Source: an uncultured Acetobacteraceae bacterium
GTDB taxonomy: Bacteria; Acidobacteriota; Terriglobia; Terriglobales; Acidobacteriaceae
Assembly: GCA_964657465.1 (NCBI GenBank)
Contig: CAZZVD010000002.1
Coordinates: 1-62,731, forward strand
Length of the DNA stretch: 62,731 bases
Reading direction: 5' to 3'
Numbering within the stretch: the first letter of the stretch is position 1; every line of letters begins with the position of its first letter. Below the pieces are notes generated by a model. That model was not told where the DNA came from. It saw only the letters and a program-made list of their open reading frames with translations, and did no database searches. The translations under genes were made by a program, and so were the position numbers. This document shows positions 7,854 through 37,987 of the stretch, piece by piece.

Positions 7854-8417
7854 TCATGGTTGCTTTTGGACGGTGCCTGCGATGTAACTGGTAAAGCGTT
7901 GTGACGTCGCGGCTTGCGCAATCTGAAAATCGATGGCTAATCGACCGTTGGCCTGCTGGGCATAGGTGAAACGGAAGCGTGGAAAGCCGGCGGCGCCTTC
8001 CGTCGAAGTCATCACGACTTTAGCCGGAGATGAGCTGACCGACACGTTGAAGGTCAGAAAATGGCCCTCATTGTCAAATAGATCGGCGCGCTGCTTAAGT
8101 CCGTACAAATAGACGTACACGATGCTGCGGTAAGTAAATTCAGGCTTTCCCGCTTGCGCGGCGAACTGTTGCTGACTGGTAAACACAAGGACTTTGCCGT
8201 CCAGATCTTGTTTGAAGGTAAACTGTCCGGGACCCTCGCCGGCGAACCCTTTGCCGGTGCCCCCCCAGGTGCCCATGAGGAATTGCCAGTCCCGCCATTG
8301 ATACATGCGATCGCGCGCCGTACGGTAAGACAGATCCTGGGCGTCTACCTTTGGGTGCGGTGCCTGGGCCGGACATGCCATTGCAACCAGCAGTGCAGCA
8401 AGAGTAATCCGTTTCAT
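7854..8417 (-). CDS. Secreted hypothetical protein (paralog of 49963-50490)
   Basis: Signal peptide MKRITLAALLVAMACPAQA. Aligns along its length with the 49963-50490 product (GTWGG../GHWFA.., FDNEGH/FDNEGN, GRLAIDFQI/GKLAIKFEM). Starts 24 nt after the upstream gene's stop. Confidence 0.7.
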   Translation of the reverse strand: MKRITLAALLVAMACPAQAPHPKVDAQDLSYRTARDRMYQWRDWQFLMGTWGGTGKGFAGEGPGQFTFKQDLDGKVLVFTSQQQFAAQAGKPEFTYRSIVYVYLYGLKQRADLFDNEGHFLTFNVSVSSSPAKVVMTSTEGAAGFPRFRFTYAQQANGRLAIDFQIAQAATSQRFTSYIAGTVQKQP

Positions 8418-8441: not shown

Positions 8442-9731
8442 TCACAGATCCAGGGTCGTAGAGTTGCGGTTGGGCAGTGTGCCTCGCTCATACGCTCGCT
8501 GGACGGTAGCGATCGATTCTGGTGTGTAGCGGCCGCTCAGTTTCGAACTCATGTCCGGCCGAGTGCGATACACGATTTCCTCAAGGTCCAGCAGGTGGCT
8601 GTGAAACGCAGCGGATAGGTCTTCAGCATGGCTGATCGCCGTTTCTCGGGCGATGTGTCGCGGGCCCAGGCTGGTGTGGGCGATCTCTGCAAACGACTGA
8701 AGTTGATGCTTTTTTAGCAGGGACGCGACCATTAGGTTTTTGCGGTCATTATGAATCTGTTGCGGTTCGTTAAAGGGGAAAAACATGTGGTAATTATGGC
8801 GATCACCGGTCACCGTGCGATAGGTGAGCATGGGAGTATCCGTCTCGCGTGCGGCGCGGACCAGATGCTTTTGGACAAAAAGCTCGAATTCCGGAACTGT
8901 CGGCATGTTCACATTCATCGATAGCTTTCGCCAGTAAGCACCGAAGCGAAAATAGCGCCTCTTGTTGAGAGGCGGCGCGTTGGTCACCTGGTCCCGATAG
9001 GCCAGGATTTTATCTGCCGCGGGCACGATGTATTTGTGGACGAAATCTTCAAACTCTGGCTCCACCCCCGGTTGCACGTAGAGATAAACAACGCGAAGAT
9101 ATCGTCCCAGATCATAGGGAACCTTCCCCGTCTCAGTCGCCGTCGCGCCGGTGTAGGACAACTCGGGCGCCACCAGGGCCACCGTTTTAGATTCCCCGAA
9201 CTGCATACCGTAGAGGTGTTTAAAGCGTTGCCATGATTCCGAAGCAGGGTCGAGTTCGTCGTCTCCCTTGTCCAGAGCCCACTGCACGCGCAGGGGCATG
9301 ATTTCGCTGTCGAGCTGATCGCCCAGGTTTTCAAAAGGAAACAACAGCGTGTACAAGTTGTCGCGCGCGGAGTCGCCGGTTTGATCTCTCAGGTAGCCTG
9401 CATTTGGGTTGTACTCCGACAGCTCGAGTTCGCAATCATCGAATGCATGATTGTGCAGATCGTAAGACATCTTGTGTGGGGCGGCGCCCGGAGGGCCAGG
9501 CTTGACCGCAGGAGGTTTGGGCTTTGTGAATCGTCTTTGCGCGGTAAGCCCAAACTGGGCTTGAACCGCTCCTCACGAGCCGCCGTCAGCCAGTTGCCGG
9601 AGCCGCGGCATAAGGTCCGAATTCGGACTGGGTACTGCCTTCTGTTTCTCAGGAACACTCTGACCCATTAGTCGGGAGGTTCCATATCCTAGAGCCGTCG
9701 TCGCAAGATGTAGAAAGGTTCGCCGTTTCAT
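8442..9731 (-). CDS. Candidate TAT-exported selenoprotein, uncharacterised family (in-frame UGA at 9573-9575 = codon 53); paralog of 36144-37430
   Basis: The ORF track splits it into 9573-9791 (MKRRTFLHL... twin-arginine signal) and 8442-9470. Both are in the same frame with no other stop between them. The sequence after the TGA (GAVQAQFGL) is conserved with the paralog. A SECIS-like hairpin lies 10 nt downstream. The gene lies directly downstream of selC-selA-selB. The conservative alternative is two separate ORFs. Confidence 0.6.
9541..9569 (-). promoter_or_regulatory. SECIS-like stem-loop downstream of the in-frame UGA
   Basis: Minus-strand reading: UGA-gga-GCGGT-tc-AAGCCCA-guu-UGGGCUU-ACCGC. 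The 17-nt upper hairpin (9546-9562) starts 10 nt after the UGA and has G-U in the apical loop. The lower stem has a 2-nt bulge. Confidence 0.55.
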
Positions 9732-9845
9732 AGTCACGACCTTTGTTGGTGAGCAAAACATAACATACAAATATCCGCAGCAACAAAACAAAGTTTATTA
9801 ATTACAATTTGCCCGCGCATCAACGAGCGGAGTCAATCGCTGTTG

Positions 9846-11774
9846 CTAAAGCACGAGACGCGAGTCACCATCGCGGCGAGTAAGTTTTGACTTGTCCAGG
9901 AACTCCAGCAAAGGGATGGCGTGCTTACGGGTTAACCCGGTCAGGTTTTTAAATTGCTGAACGTTGAGTGCCTTGCCTCTATAGGGCGCCAGCAGTGTGG
10001 CTAACCCTGAAACCGAGTCGTGGTGTAGGAACAGCGTGCCGTCTACCGGGATAAGAAGCCGCTCGCGCAACAGCGACGTCACCAGGGGCCTCACCGTCTG
10101 AGGGTCGAGACAGAGTTCTCCCAGAACTTCGGGAATGGAGCGCGCTGCCAGGGGAGATTTTTTGAAGGCAGCTAAAATGCTCAGTTGGATTCGCTTCTCC
10201 GCTACGCTTGCACCCACATGGTAGCCTGCCGGCGCGAGGAGGTCACCGGACACCCGCAACTTCTTATCCTGCATACCCTGAGCGACGATCGCGCCGAAAA
10301 TCCCGGACGGCAGCTTACTACGATTGAGCAACTCTGCCTTTCGCACCGCTCCTTCGTGCGGCCGAGCCTTAAGCAGCTGGGCCAGGTGTTGATCGAAGTG
10401 TTCGATGGCTAAGTGGTAGTGCGAGCTGGTTATCAGGCATTCTCCGCCGATGAGCAGGAGCCGCTGTTTTTGGGTGAGCGACGGCAACAATCGCTGCTTT
10501 ATCTCCTCCCCGGTGAGCAGCATCTCGCGGCAGGCCATGGACAGTTCGAGCCCCTGCATGCCTCGCCTTGCAGCGCGTTCGACTAACTCATCCGCGGGAT
10601 CCTTGATCTCTTGTAACTGCCGCAGCCACTGGTAGTTGTGCAGCTTCTTGATGCCAGGTAAGGGTTGGGCTTCAATCACGATTCCACCCCCAATGGTTCC
10701 AACGGGCGACGGCTGCCGCAGCACAAAGCGGTCGCCGCGGGCAACCAGTATGGGGCTCATCAATTTCAATCTGGCGAGGCCGCGGCTTCCTGCCGTCAGG
10801 GAAGTCTGGCTGTAGAGATTGACCCGCGCCACCACGTCTGTCGCGAAGACGTGCAAGTGCACCATGCTGCGATGTTTGAGCGTGGTGGCTCCCGGCGAGA
10901 GCGAAAGCTCAACATCGATAAGGTCCAGGGCTGCGATGGAATGCGTGGATACTAAGGTGTCGCCGCGCCTTACCTGATCGCGCTCGACCCCGGAGAGATT
11001 GAGGGCGACCCTGGTGCGCGAAGCTACATGCTGTACATGGCTGGAGTGGACCTGGATATTTCTTACTCGTACCTCTTTCCCCGACGGCTCCAGCACCAGC
11101 GATTGCCCCCTCGTCAGCTGGCCTGAAACCAGCGTCCCGGTAACGACGGTGCCGGCGCCTGTTATCGAGAAGGAGCGATCGATGGGCAGGCGCGCCGGTT
11201 GCCCTAGCCCTTGCGAAGGCAGGCCATGGGCCACTTTGCGCAGCGCAGCCTTAAGCTCGTTCAGACCAGTCCGCTGCAGGCTGCTTACGTGCAGTATGGG
11301 GTTGTGACGGCAGTCGAGGAATGTTCCGGACAAGAATTCCTCCACGTTCGTGTGCACCGTCTCTAGCCGATCCGGGCTTACGGCGTCGATCTTGGTGAGG
11401 ACGGTGATGCCGCGATCGATGCCAAGCAGGCTGCAGATCTCAAGATGTTCGACAGTTTGGGGGCGTATGCCATCGTCTGCAGCGATGACCAGAAGCACAC
11501 AGTTGATGCCGCCTGCGCCGGCCAACATATTGCGCACGAATAACTTGTGGCCGGGCACATCGACGAAGCTAACGCGTAGCGGAGAGCCATCGTCGAGTGC
11601 GTCATCCAGGAAGGCAAACCCCAGATCGATGGTGATGCCGCGCGCCTTCTCTTCCCGATGGGTATCCGTGTCGATTCCAGTAAGCGCCTTCACCAAGCTG
11701 GTTTTGCCGTGGTCGATGTGGCCGGCGGTACCAACAACCAGGTAGGTTGGATCGGTTTGCTGATGATTGATCAT
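9846..11774 (-). CDS. selB: Selenocysteine-specific translation elongation factor SelB
   Basis: N-terminal GTPase motifs (GTAGHIDHGKTSL, DVPGH, TKID) followed by a long winged-helix C-terminal extension. ATGA overlap with selA. Confidence 0.9.
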   Translation of the reverse strand: MINHQQTDPTYLVVGTAGHIDHGKTSLVKALTGIDTDTHREEKARGITIDLGFAFLDDALDDGSPLRVSFVDVPGHKLFVRNMLAGAGGINCVLLVIAADDGIRPQTVEHLEICSLLGIDRGITVLTKIDAVSPDRLETVHTNVEEFLSGTFLDCRHNPILHVSSLQRTGLNELKAALRKVAHGLPSQGLGQPARLPIDRSFSITGAGTVVTGTLVSGQLTRGQSLVLEPSGKEVRVRNIQVHSSHVQHVASRTRVALNLSGVERDQVRRGDTLVSTHSIAALDLIDVELSLSPGATTLKHRSMVHLHVFATDVVARVNLYSQTSLTAGSRGLARLKLMSPILVARGDRFVLRQPSPVGTIGGGIVIEAQPLPGIKKLHNYQWLRQLQEIKDPADELVERAARRGMQGLELSMACREMLLTGEEIKQRLLPSLTQKQRLLLIGGECLITSSHYHLAIEHFDQHLAQLLKARPHEGAVRKAELLNRSKLPSGIFGAIVAQGMQDKKLRVSGDLLAPAGYHVGASVAEKRIQLSILAAFKKSPLAARSIPEVLGELCLDPQTVRPLVTSLLRERLLIPVDGTLFLHHDSVSGLATLLAPYRGKALNVQQFKNLTGLTRKHAIPLLEFLDKSKLTRRDGDSRLVL

Positions 11775-13249
11775 GAAACTGACCGCGCGAGACCGATGGG
11801 ATGGCTGTTACCGATGACGGTTTTCAAATGGTTGATCAGAAGAGCATCGGACTCCGGCGTTATGGTCCGGAGGTCCAGAGCTACTGAGCCCTTGTAAGTC
11901 CTTGAGACTACTGGTGGGTCGAGTGACCGCAAAGCAGACGCGAGCGCGCCCGCGGTCCATGTCGGGTGATCCACGATCAGCAGAACGGTTTCGAGAGTTG
12001 CCCCCGGAGTCGTTCCTCCTCCGATCAGACTCGTGTCCGGTTGCAAATAGATCGTTGCGCCGGTCGTGCTCAGCGAGTCCCTGATATTTTCGGCCCGTGC
12101 CTGTAATCGCCCCAGCGTCTGTTGCAACATCCGGCTGATGGGAATATCGGGAGTTTGAAAGTCGAGGTACTCCTGCAGCGTACTGTCCAGCGCGGCGTAC
12201 ACCATTTTATCGACGCGGAACGTACGCAGCATGGGGTTTTGGCGGATACTCTCTATGGAACGGGACTGGCCGACAACGATTCCACACTGGGGACCGCCCA
12301 GCAACTTATCGCCGCTGCACACCACGATATGTACGCCGGCTTTGAGGCCTTTGATCAAGGTGTCTTCCCCAGAGATGCCATAGTCCTCCAGAACCAGCAG
12401 GCAGCCAGTGCCCTGATCTTCAAAGAGAATCTTGCCGTGTTCCTTGCACAGGGCGGCCAGGTCGGCTGAGGAAGGTGATTCCACGAAGCCGGTCATGGTG
12501 AAATTGGCGGGATGCACCCGCAAGAGCAAAGCGGTCTCCTCGGTGATCGCCTTGGCGTAGTCAGAGGCGCGCGTGCGATTGGTCGTCCCCACCTCGCGCA
12601 GGATCGCGCCGGACTTCGCGAGGATGTCAGGAATACGGAATCCGCCGCCAATTTCCAGAAGTTCCCCACGGGAGACGATGGTTTCCTTGCCGTCGGAAAG
12701 AGAATTCAGGACCAGGAAAGTAGCCGCCGCACAGTTGTTCACGACGATGGCGCGATAATCCTCCAGGAAATCCTGCAGCGGCAGACCGGCATGTTGTGCG
12801 AGCACGCGAAGCACCAACTGTTCAACATGGTCGTCGCGTTTGCCTCGCTCGCCAGTTGCCAGGTTGAATTCGAGATTGCAATAGCCGCCGGCAACGCGGG
12901 CAACATTTTCGAGCGCCTTTGCGCTTAAAGGAGCACGGCCCAGGTTGGTATGCAGCAAAACTCCTGTGGCATTCAGTACTGGCACCAGGGATGGACGGTT
13001 CGCGTCGCGGATGTGGTCGTGAATGGTCTGAGAGAGCCTGGATAACTCGGTTTCGAATGTATCCTCCTGTACTTCTCCGGAGGCGATTCGCTGGCGTAAC
13101 AATTGCAAACAGTCCCGGATGACGCGAATCACGAGATGCCGGGGGAAGTTCTTCAGCAGAGGTTTCAATTCCTCTGATCTTGCCAGTTCATCGATTGAGG
13201 GCAACCGGTGATAACTCATGAAGGCCGTTTTAGAGAGCGGGTCAATCAC
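11771..13249 (-). CDS. selA: L-seryl-tRNA(Sec) selenium transferase SelA
   Basis: N-terminal LPSIDELA motif, PLP-enzyme core and length fit SelA. The start is placed at GTG 13249 (GAGGA RBS 4 nt upstream); ATG 13219 is an alternative. The 13378 start in the ORF track would run through the tRNA-Sec gene. Confidence 0.85.
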   Translation of the reverse strand: MIDPLSKTAFMSYHRLPSIDELARSEELKPLLKNFPRHLVIRVIRDCLQLLRQRIASGEVQEDTFETELSRLSQTIHDHIRDANRPSLVPVLNATGVLLHTNLGRAPLSAKALENVARVAGGYCNLEFNLATGERGKRDDHVEQLVLRVLAQHAGLPLQDFLEDYRAIVVNNCAAATFLVLNSLSDGKETIVSRGELLEIGGGFRIPDILAKSGAILREVGTTNRTRASDYAKAITEETALLLRVHPANFTMTGFVESPSSADLAALCKEHGKILFEDQGTGCLLVLEDYGISGEDTLIKGLKAGVHIVVCSGDKLLGGPQCGIVVGQSRSIESIRQNPMLRTFRVDKMVYAALDSTLQEYLDFQTPDIPISRMLQQTLGRLQARAENIRDSLSTTGATIYLQPDTSLIGGGTTPGATLETVLLIVDHPTWTAGALASALRSLDPPVVSRTYKGSVALDLRTITPESDALLINHLKTVIGNSHPIGLARSVS

Positions 13250-13302
13250 GGCGTCCTCGATAATCAGGTTCTGGCATGTCGATGGTATAGAGGCAAGGGG
13301 CC

Positions 13303-13396
13303 TGGCGGAAGCGCGTGCGAGTCGAACACACCGTCGCCCGTAGGGACGACCACCGGTTTTGAAGACCGGGAGGATCACCGGAGCCTAAGCGCTTCC
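13303..13396 (-). tRNA. selC: tRNA-Sec (anticodon UCA)
   Basis: Minus strand: GGAAGCGC...CGGTCTTCAAAACCG...GTCGTCC-CTAC-GGGCGAC...GTGTG-TTCGACT-CGCAC-GCGCTTCC-G-CCA. It has an 8-bp acceptor stem, a 5-bp T stem, a 7-bp variable arm and a UCA anticodon. It closely parallels E. coli selC. Confidence 0.9.
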
Positions 13397-13468: not shown

Positions 13469-13918
13469 CTACACGGGATGGTGGGCGCCAGGGTGTGGAA
13501 CAATCTGGCAAAGCAGACGGGCTGCGCAATGAACATGACTTTCTACCTGAAACTCTCCGGAAATCTGGGCCGCGTAGTTGCGCAAGCCCAAAATCGTCGC
13601 TGTAATGGTTGCGCGATCGCCGGGCACGGGTGAGCCTGCGAAGCTGACCGATTCAATGGCTACCATGACCATCAAGCCGCCTTCTCTCGGAAGTGTCATG
13701 GTTGCCGATAACAGGACAGCACCTGCCTGGCCGATCGACTCCAGCATAAGCATTTCGGGTAATTCTCCTCCTCCACCGCAGTCACTAAAGGCCACATTCT
13801 TCAAAGCTGAAATACTCACACCGCGCTCTATCTGCAGGACCTTGTCTAGAAAAAGAAATGGATAGCGATGAGGGAGACTTTGAAGACTGATGGCGAAGCT
13901 GGAGGGAGAGCCGGCCAT
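13469..13918 (-). CDS. FabZ/FabA-like hotdog-fold protein (atypical active-site region)
   Basis: LPHRYPFLFLDKV and LESIGQAG motifs of 3-hydroxyacyl-ACP dehydratases are present. The GHFP histidine block is replaced by FSDCGGGGELP. The start was chosen to give FabZ-like length; longer starts at 13954 and 14098 are possible. Confidence 0.65.
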   Translation of the reverse strand: MAGSPSSFAISLQSLPHRYPFLFLDKVLQIERGVSISALKNVAFSDCGGGGELPEMLMLESIGQAGAVLLSATMTLPREGGLMVMVAIESVSFAGSPVPGDRATITATILGLRNYAAQISGEFQVESHVHCAARLLCQIVPHPGAHHPV

Positions 13919-14090
13919 GAAGTCATCGTCACTGTCTCCTGCGGTCGCAGTCATTAAATGCCCCAGACCGAGAGCATAGACCAGAAAAAGCGCACAGTGC
14001 TGGTCCGAAGTACAGTTGTCGCATAATCGCGTGTCCATTCTGCTAGAGCCTCGGGAGAACTCGGCGCCCTCAAAAGGTTGACTTCCACAA

Positions 14091-15533
14091 ATGCGCATTT
14101 TGCTTATACGGCCGCCTACCGAAACGTTTATTGTCTCGCCTCCGATCGGCCTGGGCTACCTGGCCACAGCACTTCGCTGTGCAGGACATCACCCGGAGAT
14201 ACTCGATTGCACGCTGACTTCGATGACGGCCAAGCAATTTGGCGAGTTTTTAGCGACGACGCCGCCGTTTCAGGTTTATGGCTTCCAGACTTATTCGTGT
14301 GAAGTAGATGTCGTGGAAAGCTGCCTGAAGGAGATAAAGCGGAGAGTTCCGAATGCGGTCACTGTGATTGGCGGCCCTCATCCTTCTGGTGGGCAGGAGT
14401 GCATGTTTGAGCTACCAGACGTGGATTTTGCGTTTCAGGGTGAGGCGGAGTTCGGCTTGCCGTTATTTTGCGACTTACTGGAAGCCGGTGACTCTCCAGA
14501 CCTGAGCCGGGTTCCTGGTCTTTTGTGGCGCGACGGCAATTGTGTTCGGGCCAATCCGAAGCACGCTGAAGCGGACCTTGATAAATTGGGGTTTCCCGCC
14601 TGGGATCTTATCGATCCGCGCAAATACCCAGTGGCTCCCCACGGAGGATTTGCTCGCTATTTTCCGGTTGCGCCTTTCATCATCTCGCGAGGCTGTCCGT
14701 ATTCTTGCACCTTCTGCGGAACGAAAAACGTGACCGGCATGAAAATGCGTTATCGCTCGATGGAGCACGTGATCGAGGAAATCCGCATGCTCCAGAACGC
14801 TTACGGGGTACGCGAATTGCATATTGAGGATGACAATTTCTCTGCTGTACGAAAAGAGATGAAAAAGTTTTGCAACAAGCTGATCGATGAGCAGGTGAAT
14901 ATTGCCTGGTATTGCACGAGCGGGCTGCGCCTCGACCTGATCGACGAGGAGCTGGCAATGCTGATGAAGAAGTCGGGTTGCTACACGGCAACGATTGCGA
15001 TCGAATCGGCGTCGCAGGCGACATTGAACCATATGAAAAAGAATCTCGACCTGGCCAAGGTTCCCGGCCAGGTCAGGTTATTGCGAAACGCCGGGCTCAC
15101 TCTGAATGCGCTTTTTATCCTCGGTTATCCTACCGAGACGCGTGGAGACATGGAGAAAACCATTCGCTATGCGATGAGCCTAGATGTGCAGCGCGCCCAG
15201 TTCTCGAACTTTCTCCCAATCCGCGGCACCGAGGCCTACGAATTTGTGAAGCAGCGGGGAGAAATCGAGGGTCTCGAACAGCGAAAGTTGCACACCGCGG
15301 ACAACCCGTACAGCCCACCCGGCATGACAACCTCAGAGCTGAAGTGGTTGCAGCGAAAAGGGTTTTTGTTTTTTCATCTGCGGCCAAGAATTCTTTGGGG
15401 TACGCTCACTAGCATCCGCTCCTTCTCGCAACTGTCATTCCTGCGGAAGAGATTGATCGAGTATTTGATTGGTCGAAAAAGAACGGGTGAACCCGGGATG
15501 CGAGAGAAAAACATCCTGGTCGAAGTCGTCTGA
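14091..15533 (+). CDS. B12-binding-domain radical SAM enzyme (class B type)
   Basis: N-terminal Rossmann-like B12-binding block (MRILLIRPP...PIGLGYLAT) and a CPYSCTFC (CX3CX2C) radical SAM cluster motif. Confidence 0.85.
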   Translation: MRILLIRPPTETFIVSPPIGLGYLATALRCAGHHPEILDCTLTSMTAKQFGEFLATTPPFQVYGFQTYSCEVDVVESCLKEIKRRVPNAVTVIGGPHPSGGQECMFELPDVDFAFQGEAEFGLPLFCDLLEAGDSPDLSRVPGLLWRDGNCVRANPKHAEADLDKLGFPAWDLIDPRKYPVAPHGGFARYFPVAPFIISRGCPYSCTFCGTKNVTGMKMRYRSMEHVIEEIRMLQNAYGVRELHIEDDNFSAVRKEMKKFCNKLIDEQVNIAWYCTSGLRLDLIDEELAMLMKKSGCYTATIAIESASQATLNHMKKNLDLAKVPGQVRLLRNAGLTLNALFILGYPTETRGDMEKTIRYAMSLDVQRAQFSNFLPIRGTEAYEFVKQRGEIEGLEQRKLHTADNPYSPPGMTTSELKWLQRKGFLFFHLRPRILWGTLTSIRSFSQLSFLRKRLIEYLIGRKRTGEPGMREKNILVEVV

Positions 15534-15578: not shown

Positions 15579-17531
15579 TTGATGGAGAGAGTGATGTCTA
15601 TCTTGAAGCGCAATTTGCTGTGTTTTTTTACCGTGATCCTTTGGTGCCTGCCTTTCCATGCTCAGATAGTCAGGCACCTGCAGTATGCGGGTCTTTCGGG
15701 CGCGCGCTCAGCAGCCGCGGGTGAAACGACGTTGCCGGCGCGGGAACCGGACGCCAAGCTGAGTGCTTACCTGCATCGTTCGCTGGCAAAAGCTCCCGCG
15801 TCTTCGTTTGTACCCGGCAATCGTGTGGTGGGACCTGCCGCAGAGGCGATGAGTGCCCGCACTGCGCCCGCAAAGGATCCCGTGGCCCTGACGGTAAAAG
15901 GCGGCGGCCACGAATTGCGCGAGAGCTTCGACGGCCTGAATTATTATCAGCAACGAAACGCGAATGATGGAAACCAGTATGCCATCGAGCCGACCGATCC
16001 TGGACTGTGTGCCGGGAATGGCTTCGTGCTGGAAACCGTGAACGAAATACTGCGCGTGTTCGATACGCATGGTAACCCGGTCGCGGCTCCCCTGGATGTC
16101 TACACCTTTTACGGGTACCCACCTGCCATCAACCGTACCACGGGCGCATTCGGGCCGTCGATCACGGACGAACATTGTTTTTACGATAAATCGAGCCGGC
16201 GGTGGTTTCATATTGCCCATACTCTCGACCGGGATCCGTTGACCAACGGTATACCAGGCACGAACCACCTTGATCTGGCCGTCAGCCGGAGCGATGATCC
16301 TACTGGTAGCTGGAGTATTTACAAACTGCCGGTTCAGGACGACGGGACGGATGGAACCCCCAACCACGCTTGCCAGTACGGCCCATGTTTTGGGGACTTT
16401 CCCCAGATAGCTGTCGACAAAAACGGCATTTACATAACCACCAATGAATTTGCATTCTTTGGCCCCGGCTTTCATGGATCGCAGATCTATGCACTTTCAA
16501 AAAAACAGTTGATTGACGGCGAGTCAGATCCAACAGTGGTGCAATTCGACACCGCTGATGCTGCTTATCTCTTCGAGGGGAACCCGGGCTACTCCGTGCA
16601 GCCTGCCCTGGACTTTGCCCAGGACTCTCCCGGTGGACGGCACGGCACCGAATTTCTGCTGAGCAACCTTGCCGGCTTTAACACCGTCGATGACCGGCTA
16701 CAGATCTGGAGCCTGAAAAATACGGAGTCGCTGGCGGGGCACTCCCCGCAGCTAAGCCTCAAGATGGGCACAGTTACGGTGAAGAGCTATTCATCTCCAC
16801 CCGACTCAGTGCAGAAGCCAGGACCTTTTCCGCTAGGACAATGTATCAACGACACGACCCTGCCAACGCCTTACGGCGCAGGATGCTGGCGGAATCTACT
16901 ATTGGGGGCGGAACCCGCGCATAATGAGACCCTCTACAACCTTCCCAGCAACGATGGACGTATGACCGAAGTAGTCATATCCAACGGCAAGCTGTGGGGT
17001 TCTTTCGATACCACGGTTACAATTGCCGGCCAGCCAGTCGCTGGACTGCAGTATTTCGCCCTTTGGCCCTGGGTCAACAGTTCGGGACCGGGGGCGAAGG
17101 TATTGTTGAGCTCGAATATCGGCGTCAAGGGGAACAACCTGACGTATCCTTCCATCGCTGCGACCCCCTGGGGCAGGGCAGTTATCGCATACACCCTGAT
17201 TGGCCCGGACTATTACCCCGCTTCGGCTTACACAATGCTTGATGTTTTTGGAGAATGCGATAAGACGGTGCGCGTTGCTGCAGCCGGCAAGGGCCCACAA
17301 GATGGATTTGAAGGCTACGCAGCTTTTGGCAGCTCGCCGCGATGGGGCACCTACAGCTCGGCGCTTCTGGATGGCGACTCGTTCTGGATTAACACTGAAT
17401 ACATAGGGCAGTCCTGCACCTTGGCGGAGTACGCTTCCGATCCGCCTGCCAGTTTGAGCTGCGGTAAATCTCGAGCAACCCTTGCAAACTGGGGCACAAG
17501 GATCAGTCGGATTTCCCCCAATGTCTGGTAG
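15579..17531 (+). CDS. Secreted hypothetical protein, 650 aa
   Basis: Signal peptide (LLCFFTVILWCLPFHAQ). Long uninterrupted ORF with genome-typical composition. I recognise no family. Confidence 0.7.
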   Translation: MMERVMSILKRNLLCFFTVILWCLPFHAQIVRHLQYAGLSGARSAAAGETTLPAREPDAKLSAYLHRSLAKAPASSFVPGNRVVGPAAEAMSARTAPAKDPVALTVKGGGHELRESFDGLNYYQQRNANDGNQYAIEPTDPGLCAGNGFVLETVNEILRVFDTHGNPVAAPLDVYTFYGYPPAINRTTGAFGPSITDEHCFYDKSSRRWFHIAHTLDRDPLTNGIPGTNHLDLAVSRSDDPTGSWSIYKLPVQDDGTDGTPNHACQYGPCFGDFPQIAVDKNGIYITTNEFAFFGPGFHGSQIYALSKKQLIDGESDPTVVQFDTADAAYLFEGNPGYSVQPALDFAQDSPGGRHGTEFLLSNLAGFNTVDDRLQIWSLKNTESLAGHSPQLSLKMGTVTVKSYSSPPDSVQKPGPFPLGQCINDTTLPTPYGAGCWRNLLLGAEPAHNETLYNLPSNDGRMTEVVISNGKLWGSFDTTVTIAGQPVAGLQYFALWPWVNSSGPGAKVLLSSNIGVKGNNLTYPSIAATPWGRAVIAYTLIGPDYYPASAYTMLDVFGECDKTVRVAAAGKGPQDGFEGYAAFGSSPRWGTYSSALLDGDSFWINTEYIGQSCTLAEYASDPPASLSCGKSRATLANWGTRISRISPNVW

Positions 17532-17726: not shown

Positions 17727-19142
17727 TTGGCGGTCGCCATCAGCTGCACCGTGCACGGGCTTGAGGATGAGGGAATTCGGTGTGGTGACCTGGTACTGAT
17801 TGCGCTCCCGGATTCTATCCAATTCGTCACTGTGTTTTTGGCATGTATGAAGCTCGGAGCGATTGCCGTTCCGGTGAGTAACTACCATCGAGAGGATGAG
17901 TACCTCCAAATTCTCGGGCATCTTCAACCAAAGCTGATCCTGGCGGAACAAAGCAACCAGGCGGTAACGTTGGCAGCGGTGAGACACCAGGGTGCCCGAT
18001 TAGTATCGCTTTCCGTCGATGCTGAAGAGTACGATTCCTGGGATAGCTGGCAGACGGGGCCGAAGTCTCTGCGAGGTTCAACTGCTGCAGAAGACCAAGT
18101 AAGTTTTCTTCTGTGGACATCGGGAACGACGGGGCATGCAATACCTGTTCCGCACAAGAAGTCGGATTGGCTTATTTGTTGCAGCAACTATGGCGAAAAG
18201 ATCCTAGGAATGTCGCGTCATGACACCTTTCTCTCCACGTCGCGGATGTATCACGCCTATGGACTAGGCAACAGCTTGTTTTTCCCGCTCTATGCGGGCG
18301 CGCGCAGCATTTTAATTACAGAACGACCAGTACCGCGTGGATCTTTGCAGCTTGCGCAGAAAATGAAAGTGACGCTTTTGTTTTCAGTGCCTACGTTTTT
18401 CAGTTTGATGTTGCGTTGTAGCGAAAAGGACCACTCCTTGCAATTGCCGCAACTCCGGCTGGCTATTTCCGCGGCAGAACCGCTCGCTCCCCGGATCTAT
18501 AACGAGTGGCCGCAGCGGTTTGGCGGAGAAATTCTGGATGGCATGGGTTCGACGGAAGCACTGCACATCTACCTTTCCGCTCGGCCCGGCGCACATCGGC
18601 CAGGCAGCGTAGGCAGGTTGGTAGAAGGATATCAAGCGCAGATTCGAGACGCGGAGGAAATGGATGCTCAGCGCACGGTTGGCAATCTTTGGCTGAAGGG
18701 CCCGAGCCTGGCCGAGAAGTATTGGAAGAATGACGAAGCGACCGAGCGTCATATGCGTGGGGGCTGGTTCGATACAGGCGATAAGTGTTCTGTAGACGAG
18801 GATGGCTATTACTACTTTCATGGCAGATCCGATTCGATGTTCCGCATCTCCGGACAGTGGGTTTCCGCGGTAGAAGTAGAAGCCGCCCTGTCCGGGGTGG
18901 AAGGCGTCAGGGAACTGGCGATTGGTATGTGCCTGGACGAAGAGGGTCTATCGAAGCTGTGCCTGTATATGGTTCTCGACGCAACGACAGAATCAACTAC
19001 GCCCGTAATTGAAAGTCTGAAGCTAGCTGCTTCAGAGCGGCTTCCTGTTAGGAAACGACCAATTCGCTTTCAAGTGTTGGCGGAGTTGCCGCGCACCGCA
19101 TCGGGGAAAATTCAGCGGCACCGCTTGCAGTTAAAGGCGTAG
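17727..19142 (+). CDS. AMP-dependent synthetase/ligase (aryl-acid/benzoate-CoA-ligase-like)
   Basis: Adenylate-forming motifs LLWTSGTTG, YGLGN, WFDTGD and GKIQR. The first canonical start is TTG 17727, but homologous N-terminal sequence continues upstream (see findings). Confidence 0.8.
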   Translation: MAVAISCTVHGLEDEGIRCGDLVLIALPDSIQFVTVFLACMKLGAIAVPVSNYHREDEYLQILGHLQPKLILAEQSNQAVTLAAVRHQGARLVSLSVDAEEYDSWDSWQTGPKSLRGSTAAEDQVSFLLWTSGTTGHAIPVPHKKSDWLICCSNYGEKILGMSRHDTFLSTSRMYHAYGLGNSLFFPLYAGARSILITERPVPRGSLQLAQKMKVTLLFSVPTFFSLMLRCSEKDHSLQLPQLRLAISAAEPLAPRIYNEWPQRFGGEILDGMGSTEALHIYLSARPGAHRPGSVGRLVEGYQAQIRDAEEMDAQRTVGNLWLKGPSLAEKYWKNDEATERHMRGGWFDTGDKCSVDEDGYYYFHGRSDSMFRISGQWVSAVEVEAALSGVEGVRELAIGMCLDEEGLSKLCLYMVLDATTESTTPVIESLKLAASERLPVRKRPIRFQVLAELPRTASGKIQRHRLQLKA

Positions 19143-19171: not shown

Positions 19172-20242
19172 ATGGCAACCAGCGAGACAGTCCGATTGAC
19201 GCAACACACCAAAAGCGGAGGTTGCGCCAGTAAATTGGCGCCGGGCTCCTTGCAGGCCGTGTTAGCCAAGCTGCCACGACAGAAAGACGACATGATGTTA
19301 GTCGGTTTCGATACTTCCGACGACGCCGGCGTCTACCAGATAAGCCCCGATCTGGCGCTTGTCAACACTGTGGATTTCTTCACGCCACTTATCGACGATC
19401 CGTACACATTCGGTCAGGTCGCGGCGACCAACGCGTTGAGCGATGTCTACGCGATGGGTGGAAGACCGATTACCGCGCTGGCGGTGGTTTGCTTTCCAGA
19501 AGACGGAGACTTCGATGTGCTTGCTCAGATTATGAAGGGCGGCCTGGCCAAGATGGCGGAGGCGGGTTGTGCCGTGGTTGGCGGGCATACAGTCCGGGAC
19601 GCCGAGGTGAAGTTCGGCTATGCGATCACAGGTTTGATTGACCCGGCGCGCGTGTTTACCAACTCAGGAGCGAAGCCCGGCGACAAATTGATTCTCACCA
19701 AGCCCATAGGCACAGGGGTCATCACTACAGCGTTGAAGCAGAATAAGGCGCAGGAGTCCTGGGTAGCCGCAGCGATCTCACAGATGACGAAACTGAATAA
19801 GCAAGCCTCGGATCTGATTGTCAAGGAGTCATTCGACGTCCATGCAGTCACAGACGTTACGGGCTTCGGCTTGATGGGGCACGCGCGTGAACTGGCCCGG
19901 GGCAGCGAGGTGAGCCTGGAGATTCAGGTCGAAGCCATACCGTTACTCGAAGGAGCACTGGAGGCAGTGCATCTTGGAGCGGTGCCCGCGGGACTGCTTG
20001 CCAACCGGGAATTTGCAGAGTGCATTGTTTCCTGCGGCCCTGCATCCGACATTGCCGAAGATCTGAAGACCCTTCTGTATGATCCGCAGACCTCGGGCGG
20101 GTTGTTGATTTCGCTTAGCGCGCAAAAAGCCGACGAGTTGGTGACCCGGTTGCACGCTCTTGGTATCTTTGCCGCGATGATCGGCCGGGTGCTTGACCCG
20201 CAAAAGACCCGGACGAGGTCAGGCGAGATTCGCTTGGTGTAG
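19172..20242 (+). CDS. selD: Selenide, water dikinase (selenophosphate synthetase) SelD, Cys form
   Basis: N-terminal SGGCASKL loop (Cys/Lys equivalent to E. coli C17/K20) and an AIR-synthase-like fold. GAGGAA RBS. Starts 29 nt after the ligase gene. Confidence 0.9.
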   Translation: MATSETVRLTQHTKSGGCASKLAPGSLQAVLAKLPRQKDDMMLVGFDTSDDAGVYQISPDLALVNTVDFFTPLIDDPYTFGQVAATNALSDVYAMGGRPITALAVVCFPEDGDFDVLAQIMKGGLAKMAEAGCAVVGGHTVRDAEVKFGYAITGLIDPARVFTNSGAKPGDKLILTKPIGTGVITTALKQNKAQESWVAAAISQMTKLNKQASDLIVKESFDVHAVTDVTGFGLMGHARELARGSEVSLEIQVEAIPLLEGALEAVHLGAVPAGLLANREFAECIVSCGPASDIAEDLKTLLYDPQTSGGLLISLSAQKADELVTRLHALGIFAAMIGRVLDPQKTRTRSGEIRLV

Positions 20243-26680: not shown

Positions 26681-27700
26681 TCATCGTGTATAGGCTGGAG
26701 CGGCTTCATCCAGCAAAGGAGCCCGTTGCCATGCAAGCTCCGGTATGGCAGTGTTCCGCAGAGCCTCGCGCCATTCCATGTAAGTATGTCCCTGATCCCA
26801 AAGGGAGTCATAGAGCTCGCCGGCCCGGTGCGCACCTTCGAGCAGAGCAGGTTGTTGCTGCAATGACAGGGTTTCGCTAAGAAAGGAATGGTTGGTGTAG
26901 GAGCGGGCGAATAAGCCGATGAAGAGGCCCGTCGCGAAATCGCCCTTGTATTGTGTTTCGAGGGATTCCAGCTGTATGAGTGCGGCGTTCGCGTCCCGGC
27001 AACCAGCAAATCCGGCTGCAATACCGTAGCCCGTAGCCAAATCGACGGCATGCTCCGGAGCCAGGTCCCGGGCCATGGAGCTGAAATCAATTGCCGCCGG
27101 AAGAATAAACCATAGCGCCCTTCCGACACCTTCATAGTAGCCTTTCCGCTGTGCGGTGCCCCAATCGCCACGAGGCCGCATCGAGCGGCCCATACGGAAG
27201 CCGAAGATGGTTTGGGCAAAACCAAAGCCATCGAGCCACAGTGAGTCGAGCCGCGGATCAGGCAGGCTGCCGCGTTGGGTGGGGAGGCTTGGACGCAGGC
27301 GAGCCATGCCTGCGGCAAAGCCCAAGCCGATGGTAAGCAGAAAGTGATGGTTTTGATGGCGTTGCCAAAAAGTGGCGAGCGACTCGCGCTTGCGAAACGG
27401 GTCGATTTGTTGCCGCAGATACATCCCGCTGCAAATTCCCTCAAGGGTAAATGGACGTGAGAACGCGCTGCAATCGTCGGCCAATTGGTTAATGCGTGGT
27501 GTTTCGCGAAAAATCCCGGCGGCGAGCCCGCGTAAGAAATAGCCAACAACCTCACACCGCACACGCATCGCCGTTCGATCTTTGCCAAAGCCCAGCAGAA
27601 TGCGCGGATCAAAGTGCTCGAGCAGGTAAGGTGCAATGAAAAACCAGAGCGCGGCACCGATCACGATGAAAGCAGGAAGTAAAACGACTGGCCAACTCAA
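26681..27700 (-). CDS. DUF1702-family protein (enediyne-cassette E3/UnbL-like)
   Basis: Blocks DPRLDSLWLDGFGFAQ and YYEGVGRALWF match my recollection of the DUF1702 consensus. A TTG start at 27700 overlaps the upstream KS stop (TTGA); ATG 27730 is the alternative. Confidence 0.6.
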   Translation of the reverse strand: MSWPVVLLPAFIVIGAALWFFIAPYLLEHFDPRILLGFGKDRTAMRVRCEVVGYFLRGLAAGIFRETPRINQLADDCSAFSRPFTLEGICSGMYLRQQIDPFRKRESLATFWQRHQNHHFLLTIGLGFAAGMARLRPSLPTQRGSLPDPRLDSLWLDGFGFAQTIFGFRMGRSMRPRGDWGTAQRKGYYEGVGRALWFILPAAIDFSSMARDLAPEHAVDLATGYGIAAGFAGCRDANAALIQLESLETQYKGDFATGLFIGLFARSYTNHSFLSETLSLQQQPALLEGAHRAGELYDSLWDQGHTYMEWREALRNTAIPELAWQRAPLLDEAAPAYTR

Positions 27701-28980
27701 CGGGACGCCCCCTTTTGTCGAAAGACGCACGATGCATGAAAGCCTCCGAAGCCGGTAGATGCCTTGACCCAGGTTCTGATCCGCGTTTTGGTGTGTTGGG
27801 TCACTGGACGCAGAGACAGGCGTGGATCAGGCTCTTCGCAGTTCAGGGTGGCTGGTACGATCCCTTGTTCGAGGGAGAGCAAAGTGAGAATGAGCTCGAG
27901 GATTGCGCTGCCGGCGAGTGTATGCCCGATATATGGTTTGAGCGCCGTCGCGAGGAGGAGGTCGAGATGCGCGCCAAACACCGATGCGATGGCGTCGCTT
28001 TCGTATTTATCCTGCAGAGGACTGGCAGCGCCATGGGGAACGATCAGGTCAATTTCCTCGGCAGAGCATTGGGCACGATCAAGCGAATCCTGCAAAGCCA
28101 TGGAGTAGTAGTTAGGGCGCATGCAGGGAACCGTCAACTTCCACGCGTCGCAGGCGAACGCTCCCGAAAGGTACTCGGTGTAGGGGGTGCGTCCGCGGGC
28201 AGTAGCGTGCTCCTGCGATTCGAGAAGCAGCGCGCCTGCGCCTTCGCCTAGCAGAAATCCATTTCGCCGCCGATCAAACGGGCGCATGATTGGGTCGCCC
28301 GTACAGGCTTTGGCGGCATTGAGCCACAGGTATCGGGTGACCTGTCGTGGGCTGTCGCCCCCGACTACAAGCATGGCATCCACATGCCCGCCGCGAATCC
28401 AGGCGGCCGCTGTTTCGAGCGCGAATAAGCCCGAAGCACAAGCATTGTTCACGATTTGAGCGGGCCCGTGGGCGCCGAGCAGCCTGGTGAGGCGCTGCAG
28501 CAGAACGAAGGAGTGAGTCTCGTACCCCGCATCCTGAATTGTTTGATACGTGTCAGTGATAAAACGGAGCGCGCTCTCCGGAGGCTTGGCGAAGGCGCCG
28601 GATATCGACTGCCAGATCTGGCTGGTGTACTCATCGAAGCCGGGATTCTCATGGGCCACGACCACACCGATCCGGGGCATGGAATCGGCGGACAGTCCAG
28701 CATCTTCGACGGCCAGTCGACAGGCCGCAAAGAAAAGAGCCAGGTTCCGGCCATTCCGGTTGTTGATGGCAGGGCTGGAAAACTCGCTGCCGATAACATG
28801 CAACAGTTGTTGATCGTCGACGGTAGCCAGCGTAAATTCGCCCAGGCTGAAGCCGTCCAGGGTCTCTCGATGCACGGCAAAATTCTGCCGGCGGGCTTCG
28901 ATTGAATGCCAGACATCTTCCTTGCCCACGCCAATCGAGGTGACGGGCCCGAGCCCGCTGATCACAATCTCTCGGCTCAA
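27697..28980 (-). CDS. Beta-ketoacyl-ACP synthase (KAS I/II-like, catalytically complete)
   Basis: Active-site Cys (NNACASG) and both His blocks (VPHGAAS, YIGHTLAGS). A TTG start at 28980 overlaps the upstream stop (TTGA) and gives the typical N-terminus SREIVISGLGPVTSIG. Confidence 0.85.
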   Translation of the reverse strand: MSREIVISGLGPVTSIGVGKEDVWHSIEARRQNFAVHRETLDGFSLGEFTLATVDDQQLLHVIGSEFSSPAINNRNGRNLALFFAACRLAVEDAGLSADSMPRIGVVVAHENPGFDEYTSQIWQSISGAFAKPPESALRFITDTYQTIQDAGYETHSFVLLQRLTRLLGAHGPAQIVNNACASGLFALETAAAWIRGGHVDAMLVVGGDSPRQVTRYLWLNAAKACTGDPIMRPFDRRRNGFLLGEGAGALLLESQEHATARGRTPYTEYLSGAFACDAWKLTVPCMRPNYYSMALQDSLDRAQCSAEEIDLIVPHGAASPLQDKYESDAIASVFGAHLDLLLATALKPYIGHTLAGSAILELILTLLSLEQGIVPATLNCEEPDPRLSLRPVTQHTKTRIRTWVKASTGFGGFHASCVFRQKGASR

Positions 28981-30170: not shown

Positions 30171-30172
30171 GG

Positions 30173-35118: not shown

Positions 35119-36147
35119 ATGAAGGCAGATCGGACGATAGGAGGGCTGGTGGTTCTGATGGGCGGTTTGCTCACTCAGTGCTCAGCTCAAACCTTTATCA
35201 GGGCGATTCTCCCCAATCCTTCCCCGCAGGAAGCTACGGGATATAAATTCCAAATCCTAACCCCGGGGGCAGTACAGACTGCGTCCCTGCGTAATAACGT
35301 TTTGGTGGCCAGGACCGGCGAAGCCAGAATCCAAACCGTTGCTTATTCCAAGCCGTCACAGCCAAAACTGGACCAGGCGTATCAGATTGCCGCCCACGAG
35401 ACGCCGTCCAGCGTCAAATTCGGATTCGACGATAAGCTCCCCGCGGATGGAAAGATCGATCTGCGGATTTCGTTCAGCCCCACGGATTACTGGAAGGTGT
35501 ATTTCAACGACACATTCCAATATGCCGACGGCCACAGCGAACGCTCCCGGATTCCCTATGCCGCGTTCTTTGTCAACTTTACGCCGACCAAGGATCCCGC
35601 AAAGGTCCTGGCAACGTTGACCGTCATTAACAACATCGCTTCAACGTACGGCATCGCCAGCAACGTGGTGAACGATGAAAAGCGACCGACCATCAACTTT
35701 AAGCATGCCACTGTATTTATTAACAACGATCTGCACAACTACAACCTGGAGCACTTTGACCAGGCAACCGGACAGAAGGTAGACCTGCCGGCTTCCTTTT
35801 CTCTGAAAAAAGGGGAGTCACAGGTATTCGATCTGGGAGTAGTGAACAAGGACAGCTATGTTTACACCATGTCTGAAGTGAGCTACGAGGGGCAGACCGA
35901 AACCTTCCCAATTGCCTGCGCTCATAGTGCCGACGCCACGGATACAAAGGGCGAAACGATGAGCGATGGACAGAACATGCCGGCGGGTTCGCTCTCCAGC
36001 GTGCAACTGAATTCCAGCGCATCCGCTAAGACCACGACCAGCGAAACCCAAAAACAGCAAACTTCTGATGTTCAGAACAAGCCGGGCGCCACGAGCGAAG
36101 TTCACCCAAAGCGAACGAATCCTGAAAAGAGCAAGGAGCAGAAATGA
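35119..36147 (+). CDS. Secreted hypothetical protein with low-complexity Ser/Thr/Lys-rich tail
   Basis: Signal peptide (LVVLMGGLLTQCSAQ). Its stop overlaps the next gene's ATG (ATGA). Confidence 0.65.
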   Translation: MKADRTIGGLVVLMGGLLTQCSAQTFIRAILPNPSPQEATGYKFQILTPGAVQTASLRNNVLVARTGEARIQTVAYSKPSQPKLDQAYQIAAHETPSSVKFGFDDKLPADGKIDLRISFSPTDYWKVYFNDTFQYADGHSERSRIPYAAFFVNFTPTKDPAKVLATLTVINNIASTYGIASNVVNDEKRPTINFKHATVFINNDLHNYNLEHFDQATGQKVDLPASFSLKKGESQVFDLGVVNKDSYVYTMSEVSYEGQTETFPIACAHSADATDTKGETMSDGQNMPAGSLSSVQLNSSASAKTTTSETQKQQTSDVQNKPGATSEVHPKRTNPEKSKEQK

Positions 36148-37430
36148 AGAGACGATTGTTCTTAAAATCCGGTAGCGGCGCTTTGTTAGCTGCAGGCTCC
36201 GGACTCCTCCCGCTTGTGGGTCAGCAGAAAACCGCGCCCAAAACGGCTCCATCCACCAATACCACGCCTTCGGCGACCGCCCCCAAAGCCGCACCCTCTG
36301 TAACACCGAAGCCCGCGGTTACCTCTTCGGGCGGTTCTTGATCGGCCAATTCAGCCCAGTTTGGGCTGCACGGCACACGGGACTTCCAGCAGAATTCGAA
36401 CGCAGCGAGTGTTGCTCCAACCGACTATCTTCTTGGATCAGACATTCGCAATTATCGCTTCAAAGTCGCCGAATGGAATCCGAATCAGGGCTACATTCAA
36501 AGCGGCGAGGCTGCGACCGCACGCAACAACCTGTATACCTTGCTGTTTCCATTTGAAAACCTGGGTGATCAGCTCGACAGCGAAATCATGCCGCTCAGAG
36601 TACAGTGGGCGCAGGATGCCGGCGAGAGCCACCTCGATCCAAACAGTGCTTCCTGGAAGCGGTTCAAACAGCTGTACAGCTATCAATTCCAGGAGCAGAA
36701 AACGGTTGCTTTGTTTGCGCCGGAACTCTCTTACAAGGGGCCGAGCGATATCAGCACCGATCAGTATGACTTCGGGAGATACCTGCGCATTGTGTATCTC
36801 TATGTCAAGCCCGATAAAATGCCTGAGTTTGAAGACTTTGTCCACAAGTACATCGTGCCGGCTGCGACAGAAATCCTTAAATATCGCGACAAAGTAGTGA
36901 ACGCACCCCCACCCGACCAACGTGAATACTTCAAGCTGGCGCCGCATCTTCGAAAGGTGTCCATAAACGTCAACATGCCAACCATTCCGGAATTCGAATT
37001 GTTCATCCAGCGGTACCTGGTTCCAGCGGCCCAGCGGACGAATACTCCCCTGCTCACCTACCGGACTGTTACCGGGGACAAACACAATTACCACATGCTT
37101 TATCCGTTCGAGGGGAAGCATCAATTCCACTACGACAACAAAAACCTGATCGCGTCTTCATTGTTGCGCGACAATCACCTGCAAATGTTGGCGGAGTCTG
37201 CAGGGGTGCCCAAGTTCACTTTGGCCTCCTACAAACCCAACGACAAAAAGCATGCCGTCGAACAAGCACTCGCCGAAGCCGACGAACTGGCGGCCGAATT
37301 CCATAGTCATGCCATTGAAATGGAAGAAATTGTCTATGTGACTCGACCCGACATGAGCTCTCTTCTAGAGGGGCGCTACACGAAGGAATCGGTAAAGCTG
37401 ATCAACGCGTCGTACACTGCCGGGATGTAG
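36144..37430 (+). CDS. Candidate TAT-exported selenoprotein (in-frame UGA at 36339-36341 = codon 66); paralog of 8442-9731
   Basis: The twin-arginine signal ORF (MKRRLFLKSGSGALLAAG) ends GGS-TGA. The same frame stays open into the 36540-37430 ORF. Homology to the paralog begins immediately after the TGA (SANSAQFGL vs GAVQAQFGL) and well upstream of the first Met. Confidence 0.6.
36352..36368 (+). promoter_or_regulatory. SECIS-like hairpin 10 nt downstream of the in-frame UGA
   Basis: CAGCCCA-guu-UGGGCUG. Position, length and loop are identical to the hairpin at 9546-9562. The outermost pair is C-G here versus A-U there. Confidence 0.55.
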
Positions 37431-37437
37431 GAGATGA

Positions 37438-37470
37438 GGAGCCGGACTTGTGAGCCCGGCTCCATTTTCT
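37438..37470 (+). terminator. Rho-independent terminator after the selenoprotein candidate
   Basis: GGAGCCGG (37438-37445) pairs with CCGGCTCC (37456-37463), followed by attttctcatttt. Confidence 0.6.
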
Positions 37471-37518
37471 CATTTTCGACTCACGAGAGTCATTGTTCTA
37501 CAAGGATGGAGGAAGTCG

Positions 37519-37971: not shown

Positions 37972-37987
37972 TGGGTGCGGGCAGGAC

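Follow-up and report, generated by a model that had tools for sequence, protein, structure and literature searches.

Among the bacterial genes in which an internal UGA is decoded by SelB at an element termed the selenocysteine insertion sequence (SECIS), the nearest analogue in logic of the two genes described here is FdnG/FdoG, the alpha subunit of formate dehydrogenase, which is exported by the twin-arginine translocation (TAT) pathway. The two genes, copy 1 and copy 2, are paralogs from a 62,731-nucleotide (nt) stretch of contig CAZZVD010000002.1 of an uncultured acidobacterium; this whole stretch is referred to as the window. In common with genes decoded by SelB, they have an in-frame UGA, a stem-loop in the coding region that lies at the canonical distance and carries G-U in its apical loop, and the machinery for selenocysteine (Sec) insertion in the genome. 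As in FdnG/FdoG, the predicted protein starts with a twin-arginine signal, so that Sec would be inserted in the cytoplasm before export. The protein differs from FdhA in that the two are related neither in sequence nor in fold, and its Sec is predicted in an N-terminal extension before the first strand, outside a known active-site motif.

The second point of comparison is GrdA, a selenoprotein family without known cysteine (Cys)-containing homologues (PMC1794560). The family described here shares this property; however, GrdA is small, cytoplasmic, and of the CxxU type, and belongs to a characterised enzyme complex, whereas the protein from the window is predicted to be exported and has a lone Sec, no partner Cys, and a sister clade with Asp. 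Programs that search for pairs of Cys and Sec cannot recover families that lack Cys homologues (PMC12013277). No Cys version of the present family was found, and it has therefore been missed by gene callers and selenoprotein finders. A catalogue of prokaryotic selenoproteins contains 119 (sub)families defined by Pfam, NCBIfam/TIGRFAM, or cd models (PMC13188914). None of the Pfam and NCBIfam models that define these (sub)families matches the two genes.

It is highly probable, judging from the sequences, that the internal UGA of both genes is decoded as Sec by the canonical bacterial route. The genes very probably represent a rare family of exported proteins of Acidobacteriota that has not previously been recognized as a selenoprotein family; no description of it was found in the literature. 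The mechanism of decoding is a known one, whereas the family itself is new. New selenoprotein families still emerge from computational analyses, and the distinctive features of this one are the orphan fold, the predicted TAT export, the presence of two paralogs, the embedding among sel genes, the lack of Cys forms, and the alternation of Sec and Asp. The family would be an addition to the 119 catalogued ones, all of which are tied to known domains, and it provides a concrete case of the blind spot of finders based on Cys/Sec pairs. Its recognition corrects a systematic mis-annotation, as public records hold only N-truncated hypothetical proteins, and provides Acidobacteriota, a dominant but poorly understood phylum of soil bacteria, with a candidate exported selenoenzyme that has an orphan fold.

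Internal TGA codons and SECIS-type hairpins

The mechanical list of open reading frames (ORFs) contains 9573..9791, which starts at TTG, and 8442..9470; the two share one frame. The original prediction that a TGA is the only interruption between the two ORFs was borne out, together with its coordinates and the lengths of 52, 342, and 429 amino acids (aa). However, the realistic start of copy 1 is not TTG 9791 but ATG 9731–9729, which opens the sequence MKRRTFLH and is followed by the signal and linker, 52 codons in total before the TGA. The N-terminal part reads MKRRTFLHLATTALGYGTSRLMGQSVPEKQKAVPSPNSDLMPRLRQLADGGS up to TGA 9575–9573, after which 376 sense codons (GAVQAQFGLTAQRRF...) continue to the stop TGA 8444–8442. 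The peptide spanning the predicted Sec is QLADGGS-U-GAVQAQFGLTAQR, with the motif GGS-TGA-GAVQAQFGL. An earlier hand translation of the segment after the TGA is correct except for its last three residues, since it ends in APHTR where the true sequence is APHK-M. The proposed paralog has the same layout, with the junction ...SSGGS-TGA-SANSAQFGL.

The DNA of 20 related loci was compared, two of which are from one metagenome-assembled genome (MAG) of Acidobacteriota and 18 from metagenomes. Together, the two copies from the window and 15 sequences from related loci provide 17 distinct TGA-bearing sequences. All 17 are interrupted by TGA, which occupies one position of the alignment and follows S or T. 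At every related locus with upstream sequence and a stop in it, the stop is TGA and never TAA or TAG.

A bacterial SECIS element has an apical loop of 3–9 nt that starts with G followed by G or U, an upper stem of 4–16 base pairs (bp), and a distance of 16–37 nt from the UGA to the loop (PMC13188914). The hairpin located downstream of the TGA fits each of these constraints, with a loop of 3 nt, G-U at its start, a stem of 6–7 bp, and a spacing of 17 nt. In the alignment of the 17 sequences anchored on the TGA (A2), columns 14–20 pair with columns 24–30 and enclose the loop G21-U22-N23, of which G21 and U22 are invariant. The spacing is fixed: the 7-bp upper stem starts 10 nt after the UGA, the 6 bp that are invariably paired start at 11 nt, and the loop starts at 17 nt. 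All 17 sequences form the six inner pairs, and 12 also form the outermost one, 14:30; 95.8% of the cells are paired. Compensatory changes occur at three pairs, namely between GC and UA at 16:28 (plus one UG), between AU and GC at 20:24, and between AU and CG at 14:30. The covariation score was reached by none of 500 shuffles, and sliding the 3′ partner by 1–3 columns makes the pairing collapse. Copy 1 has an additional lower stem, GCGGU/ACCGC, and its fold has an energy of −18.2 kcal/mol (z = −2.85). Within the window, the combination of TGA and hairpin occurs at only two sites, which are the two gene copies.

Two four-fold-degenerate sites, C18 in an Ala/Ser codon and G27 in a Gly codon, do not vary among the 17 TGA loci. 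By contrast, homologues that lack the TGA keep the QAQFG peptide but encode it as GCG CAG TTC GGC, which destroys the stem and differs at C18 and G27. The loss of the stem despite the same peptide indicates that the constraint on synonymous sites is linked to whether the TGA is present.

The window contains the complete Sec set selC, selA, selB, and selD, with selC-selA-selB directly 5′ of copy 1 (Table 1). The neighbour of copy 1 had been named as selB, and its profile match confirms this. The mechanical selA ORF, which starts at GTG 13378, overlaps tRNA-Sec by about 75 nt, and its match to TIGR00474 begins only at residue 57; the true start of selA is probably located downstream of selC, in which case selC, selA, and selB would form one compact unit. 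At 11771–11774, the selA stop and the selB start overlap. Consistent with the earlier claim that the window has no known selenoprotein gene, none was found among the 35 ORFs that were scanned against Pfam or NCBIfam. In the proposed mechanism, the hairpin in the mRNA would recruit SelB carrying Sec-tRNA(Sec), the tRNA being charged via SelA and SelD, the genes of which are in the same window. Sec would be inserted at residue 53 of the copy 1 product and residue 66 of the copy 2 product.

It is very unlikely that the UGA is instead read through without Sec, for example by a Trp, Cys, or Arg tRNA that is near-cognate, with stimulation by the hairpin, or through local reassignment of the codon. 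Without Cys homologues the position lacks an independent chemical hint of Sec, which favors such readthrough. However, the geometry of the hairpin and its G-U loop signature are those of a bacterial SECIS, tRNA-Sec is present together with selA, selB, and selD, three of these genes being adjacent, and TGA is the only stop found at the site. Furthermore, copy 1 terminates at a genuine TGA stop, and TGA is therefore not reassigned in the organism.

Table 1 Positions of the two predicted selenoprotein genes, their elements, and associated genes in the window
Feature	Position	Strand	Remarks
Predicted selenoprotein gene, copy 1 (full)	8442..9731	-	429 codons (52 + Sec + 376) plus stop; supported by homologues
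TAT signal peptide of copy 1, MKRRTFLHLATTALGYGTSRLMG	9660..9731	-	RRxF/L-I/L/M motif; cleavage site approximate, by eye
In-frame TGA of copy 1, predicted Sec codon, residue 53	9573..9575	-	TGA in 17/17 distinct sequences
SECIS-type stem-loop, copy 1	9539..9571	-	Lower stem 9569-9565 with 9545-9541; upper stem AAGCCCA (9562-9556) with UGGGCUU (9552-9546); loop GUU 9555-9553
Post-Sec part of copy 1, 376 aa	8445..9572	-	First beta-strand AVQAQFGLTAQR, low-confidence linker, tandem alpha+beta core (model)
Secreted 187-aa partner, nitrobindin-like 10-stranded beta-barrel (model)	7854..8417	-	24 nt past copy 1 stop
selB	9846..11774	-	TIGR00475, 334 bits (cutoff 242); SelB winged-helix domain present; 114 nt upstream of copy 1
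selA	11771..13378	-	TIGR00474, 495 bits; preceded by tRNA-Sec
tRNA-Sec (selC)	13303..13396	-	Anticodon UCA
selD, Cys form (GGCASK)	19172..20242	+	TIGR00476, 379 bits; 9.4 kb from copy 1
Secreted 342-aa protein, partner of copy-2-type genes	35119..36147	+	No family match; stop overlaps copy 2 ATG
Predicted selenoprotein gene, copy 2 (paralog)	36144..37430	+	428 codons plus stop
In-frame TGA of copy 2, predicted Sec codon, residue 66	36339..36341	+	
SECIS-type hairpin, copy 2	36352..36368	+	CAGCCCA-GUU-UGGGCUG

Continuity of the reading frame across the TGA

A signal ORF with the motif RR-x-[FLI]-[ILM] is in frame with the TGA in 16 of the 17 distinct sequences. The motif RRxF/L-I/L/M is present in 23 of 23 recovered upstream regions, which belong to 19 TGA-type loci and to the TGA-free homologues P0040, P0042, L018, and L019. 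The exception to the common frame is the Acidobacteriota MAG copy L002 (5823–5990), in which the TAT start MNRRNLLK... and the frame with the TGA are offset by one base, probably through a homopolymer indel in the assembly of the MAG, or else because the copy is decaying. Substitutions between related loci at codon positions 1, 2, and 3 number 53, 34, and 89 upstream of the TGA and 38, 28, and 53 downstream of it. The enrichment of third-position changes on both sides indicates that the flanks of the TGA are under purifying selection.

In the four TGA-free homologues, the TAT signal and the domain are encoded in one uninterrupted ORF, and the fused architecture is therefore real. These homologues have Asp aligned with the predicted Sec. 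In a neighbor-joining tree rooted with distant relatives, they form a clade that is sister to all TGA forms.

Two separate genes, in which the TGA ends a TAT-like peptide of 52–65 aa and the domain is initiated internally, for example at Met 9470, are the arrangement that automatic callers annotate: they split the gene on the contig carrying copy 2 into genes of 65 and 280 aa, and elsewhere record truncated proteins. The failure to find a Cys-aligned full-length homologue fits this arrangement as well. However, the database gene calls start at varied ATG, GTG, and TTG codons past the TGA position, with P0022 beginning right on it ('VAAQAQFGL'), and N-termini that vary between loci argue against a conserved internal start. 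The peptide from the TGA to the first Met is conserved and modelled as a β-strand, which initiation at Met 9470 would remove. A TAT signal peptide alone would have no cargo. The homologues are also not two genes in different frames, as the original prediction had considered, but share one frame in all distinct sequences except L002 and are conserved past the TGA. Together with the constancy of the TGA and the fusion of the TGA-free homologues, these observations make two genes a highly improbable explanation. The frame disruption in L002 is the point in favor of a pseudogene or of a sequencing or assembly error as the origin of the TGA, an explanation that is effectively refuted: the TGA recurs at one position in both paralogs and across 17 distinct sequences from independent metagenomes, with flanks under purifying selection.

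Several observations weigh against the decoding of the UGA as Sec. The sel genes adjoin a gene of the family only in the window, and none of the other loci for which flanking sequence exists has them next to it; placement amid selC-selA-selB and selD is peculiar to this genome. The TGA-free clade has not only Asp at the Sec position but also lacks the GGS motif, which indicates that the fold can do without Sec. Positions 9400–9700 matched no SECIS model of Rfam at E ≤ 10, where the only match was a spurious long non-coding RNA; this negative carries little weight, as the coverage of bacterial SECIS elements by models is poor. The original prediction had called for homologues with Cys aligned to the TGA and had counted their absence against itself, and none was found in 42 protein clusters or among the 12 hits of an exhaustive HMMER scan of 1.84 billion representatives. 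The missing Cys homologues do not refute the assignment as a selenoprotein; they are an unusual property for which GrdA is a precedent. Of the features of a bacterial selenoprotein gene, the conserved in-frame UGA, the SECIS stem-loop, and the Sec machinery are thus present, and Cys homologues, the customary bioinformatic mark of such genes but not an essential one, were not found. The conserved TGA, coding in one frame on both of its sides, the covarying hairpin, and the sel genes support the initial reading of the locus as a gene for a selenoprotein with a TAT signal.

Predicted fold, export, and role of selenocysteine

The family has 42 relatives among 5.8 billion protein clusters, all of which are annotated as 'hypothetical' and have no Pfam domain. 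As annotated, nearly all of them are 280–375 aa long and begin after the TGA position. The Ca. Sulfotelmatobacter MAG proteins MGA7219526.1 and MGA7220114.1 in GenBank are N-truncated 'hypothetical proteins' without a signal peptide or Sec. Two of the hits of the HMMER scan are representatives of the family, and the rest are distant and mostly shorter. The distant full-length hits with a visible N-terminus, P0047 and P0048, have ordinary signal peptides, and the N-terminal QAQFGL segment is present in none of the inspected distant hits. Neither copy matched Pfam-A or NCBIfam r20 at E ≤ 0.01, the 42 members gave no consistent Pfam or NCBIfam hit at E ≤ 5, and a profile search (hmmsearch) against PDB sequences gave 0 hits.

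The structure of the post-TGA part was modelled from the alignment of 42 sequences, with a predicted local distance difference test score (pLDDT) of 86.4 and a predicted template modelling score of 0.85. Residues 2–13 of the model, located directly after the Sec position, form a β-strand with a pLDDT of about 91. The strand is followed by the low-confidence linker and the tandem β-α-β core, and according to the model the post-TGA part is an orphan α+β fold. A Foldseek search against PDB gave nothing significant. Its top matches are ABM/Dabb-type tandem ferredoxin-like proteins (for example PDB 2pgc, 5f9p, 3f44, and 9lmn), which have a similar repeated β-α-β pattern; however, the best E-value of 8e-3, template modelling (TM) scores of 0.18–0.32 with a root-mean-square deviation of about 15 Å, and the lack of a PDB or Pfam profile match do not establish membership in this group.

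Among the invariant polar residues of the family, Arg, Tyr, Glu, Gln, and Asn predominate, together with H379; individual invariant positions include H377, H312, R148, E180, and Y304. The lists of invariant columns contain no conserved Cys. The predicted Sec is the sole conserved chalcogen residue and has no partner thiol. A redox motif of the CxxU or UxxC type was rejected, because the family lacks any conserved Cys.

By inspection, the motif M[KND]RRx[FLI][ILM] is present at all loci, and the signal peptides have endings of the AFAQ, ANAQ, and GAQQ types; by motif criteria, the protein is a predicted substrate of TAT export. The twin-arginine motif KRRTFLH that had been noticed upstream of the TGA is part of the sequence encoded from ATG 9731. 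The downstream part has no signal peptide of its own, as had also been noted, and the N-terminus of a product initiated at Met 9470 is not hydrophobic. A linker of 20–40 residues, rich in K, P, and Q or in T and P, separates the signal from the predicted Sec at the start of the folded domain.

The TAT route is typical of cofactor-bearing proteins. The protein would probably fold, and perhaps be loaded with a cofactor, in the cytoplasm before its export, and the predicted Sec would be retained after signal cleavage. The mature protein would consist of the flexible linker, followed by [S/T]-Sec and the first β-strand (xxQAQFGL) of the orphan tandem α+β domain. Given that the sister clade has Asp, that no partner Cys is present, and that export is predicted to follow the TAT route, we speculate that Sec most likely acts as a single residue, either binding a metal or cofactor or serving as a nucleophile, and not in a redox pair of the CxxU type. 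The alternation of Sec and Asp may be compared with the ligand series Sec/Cys/Ser/Asp of molybdenum-bis(pyranopterin guanine dinucleotide) enzymes. The protein, again speculatively, probably works in the periplasm with the secreted 342-aa protein and one or more nitrobindin-like barrel proteins. Any specific biochemical role can be assigned with low confidence only. A tentative reading that joins these elements, and that is itself rather unlikely to hold in full, is of an obligate Sec family in which Sec was never a replacement for Cys and in which the lone Sec at the junction of the tail and the orphan domain would be a metal or cofactor ligand or a catalytic nucleophile, interchangeable with Asp. 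Present in two copies amid the sel genes, the family might be one of the main reasons why these Acidobacteriota of soil or peat keep the Sec machinery, and in the periplasm it might act on a hydrophobic or tetrapyrrole ligand together with nitrobindin-like barrels. The dichotomy of Sec and Asp and the sel-gene neighborhood make the role of selenium directly testable.

Genes flanking the two copies

In each of the six loci with downstream sequence, the copy-1-type gene precedes one or two copies of the secreted 187-aa protein. The model of this protein, based on six sequences, is of moderate confidence (pLDDT 75.5). Its comparison with nitrobindin from Arabidopsis gave TM-scores of 0.59/0.70 and a probability of 1.0 at a sequence identity of 12–13%, and the protein has a weak match to the Pfam family THAP4_heme-bd. 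The likeness to heme- or ligand-binding barrels of the nitrobindin/THAP4 type applies to this downstream partner only. A third, more distant paralog of the partner is encoded at 49963–50490 (−), with about 25% identity and a retained FDNEG motif; it adjoins a 317-aa ORF, homologues of which flank the family in L002 and L005. A scan for promoters and terminators around copy 1 was uninformative.

The secreted 342-aa protein precedes copy-2-type genes, including the Asp-type L019, and in the window its stop overlaps the ATG of copy 2 in the sequence ATGA. Locus L003 joins the neighbor sets of copy-1-type and copy-2-type genes in one cluster. A relationship as paralogs between the 187-aa and 173-aa ORFs downstream of the two copies was rejected; the 173-aa ORF is GyrI-like.

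This GyrI-like gene for a small-molecule-binding protein (37450–37971, +) and a LolA-like/FGE-sulfatase fusion (37964–39472, +) are located downstream of copy 2, and in L019 (355–2422) this pair likewise accompanies the Asp-type homologue. Similarity of the fusion to EgtB and to the selenoneine synthase SenA is weak and below threshold. An FGE-sulfatase-type modification of Sec by the LolA-FGE protein was rejected, since co-location is the sole support for it.

A glycosyltransferase of the PMT_2 type (protein O-mannosyl/ArnT-like) adjoins copy-2-type genes in the window (31802–33553, +), in L002 (2895–4622), and in L016 (1731–3458). The linkers before Sec in copy-2-type proteins are rich in Thr and Pro, for example TTTTTPPTTTTTTTTDTASS-U. 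As a speculation, the Thr/Pro-rich linker and the PMT_2 neighbor may reflect O-glycosylation of the linker.

Two paralogous B12-binding radical SAM proteins are encoded near the two selenoprotein gene copies, at 14091–15533 (+) and 33550–35106 (+). Their best matches are BchE, HpnJ, and ApyD, all sub-threshold, and homologues of the two are found alongside the family in L001, L003, and L005. A link to lipids or hopanoids through these neighbors was likewise rejected, since it is supported by co-location alone. Between the first radical SAM gene and an acyl/aryl-CoA ligase gene (17727–19142, +) that is located beside selD, the window encodes a secreted protein of 650 aa (15579–17531, +) without a Pfam or NCBIfam match. 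Other genes of a lipid or polyketide type are a FabZ-like dehydratase gene (13469–14098, −) just upstream of selC and three ketoacyl-synthase-like ORFs at 27697–31336 (−).

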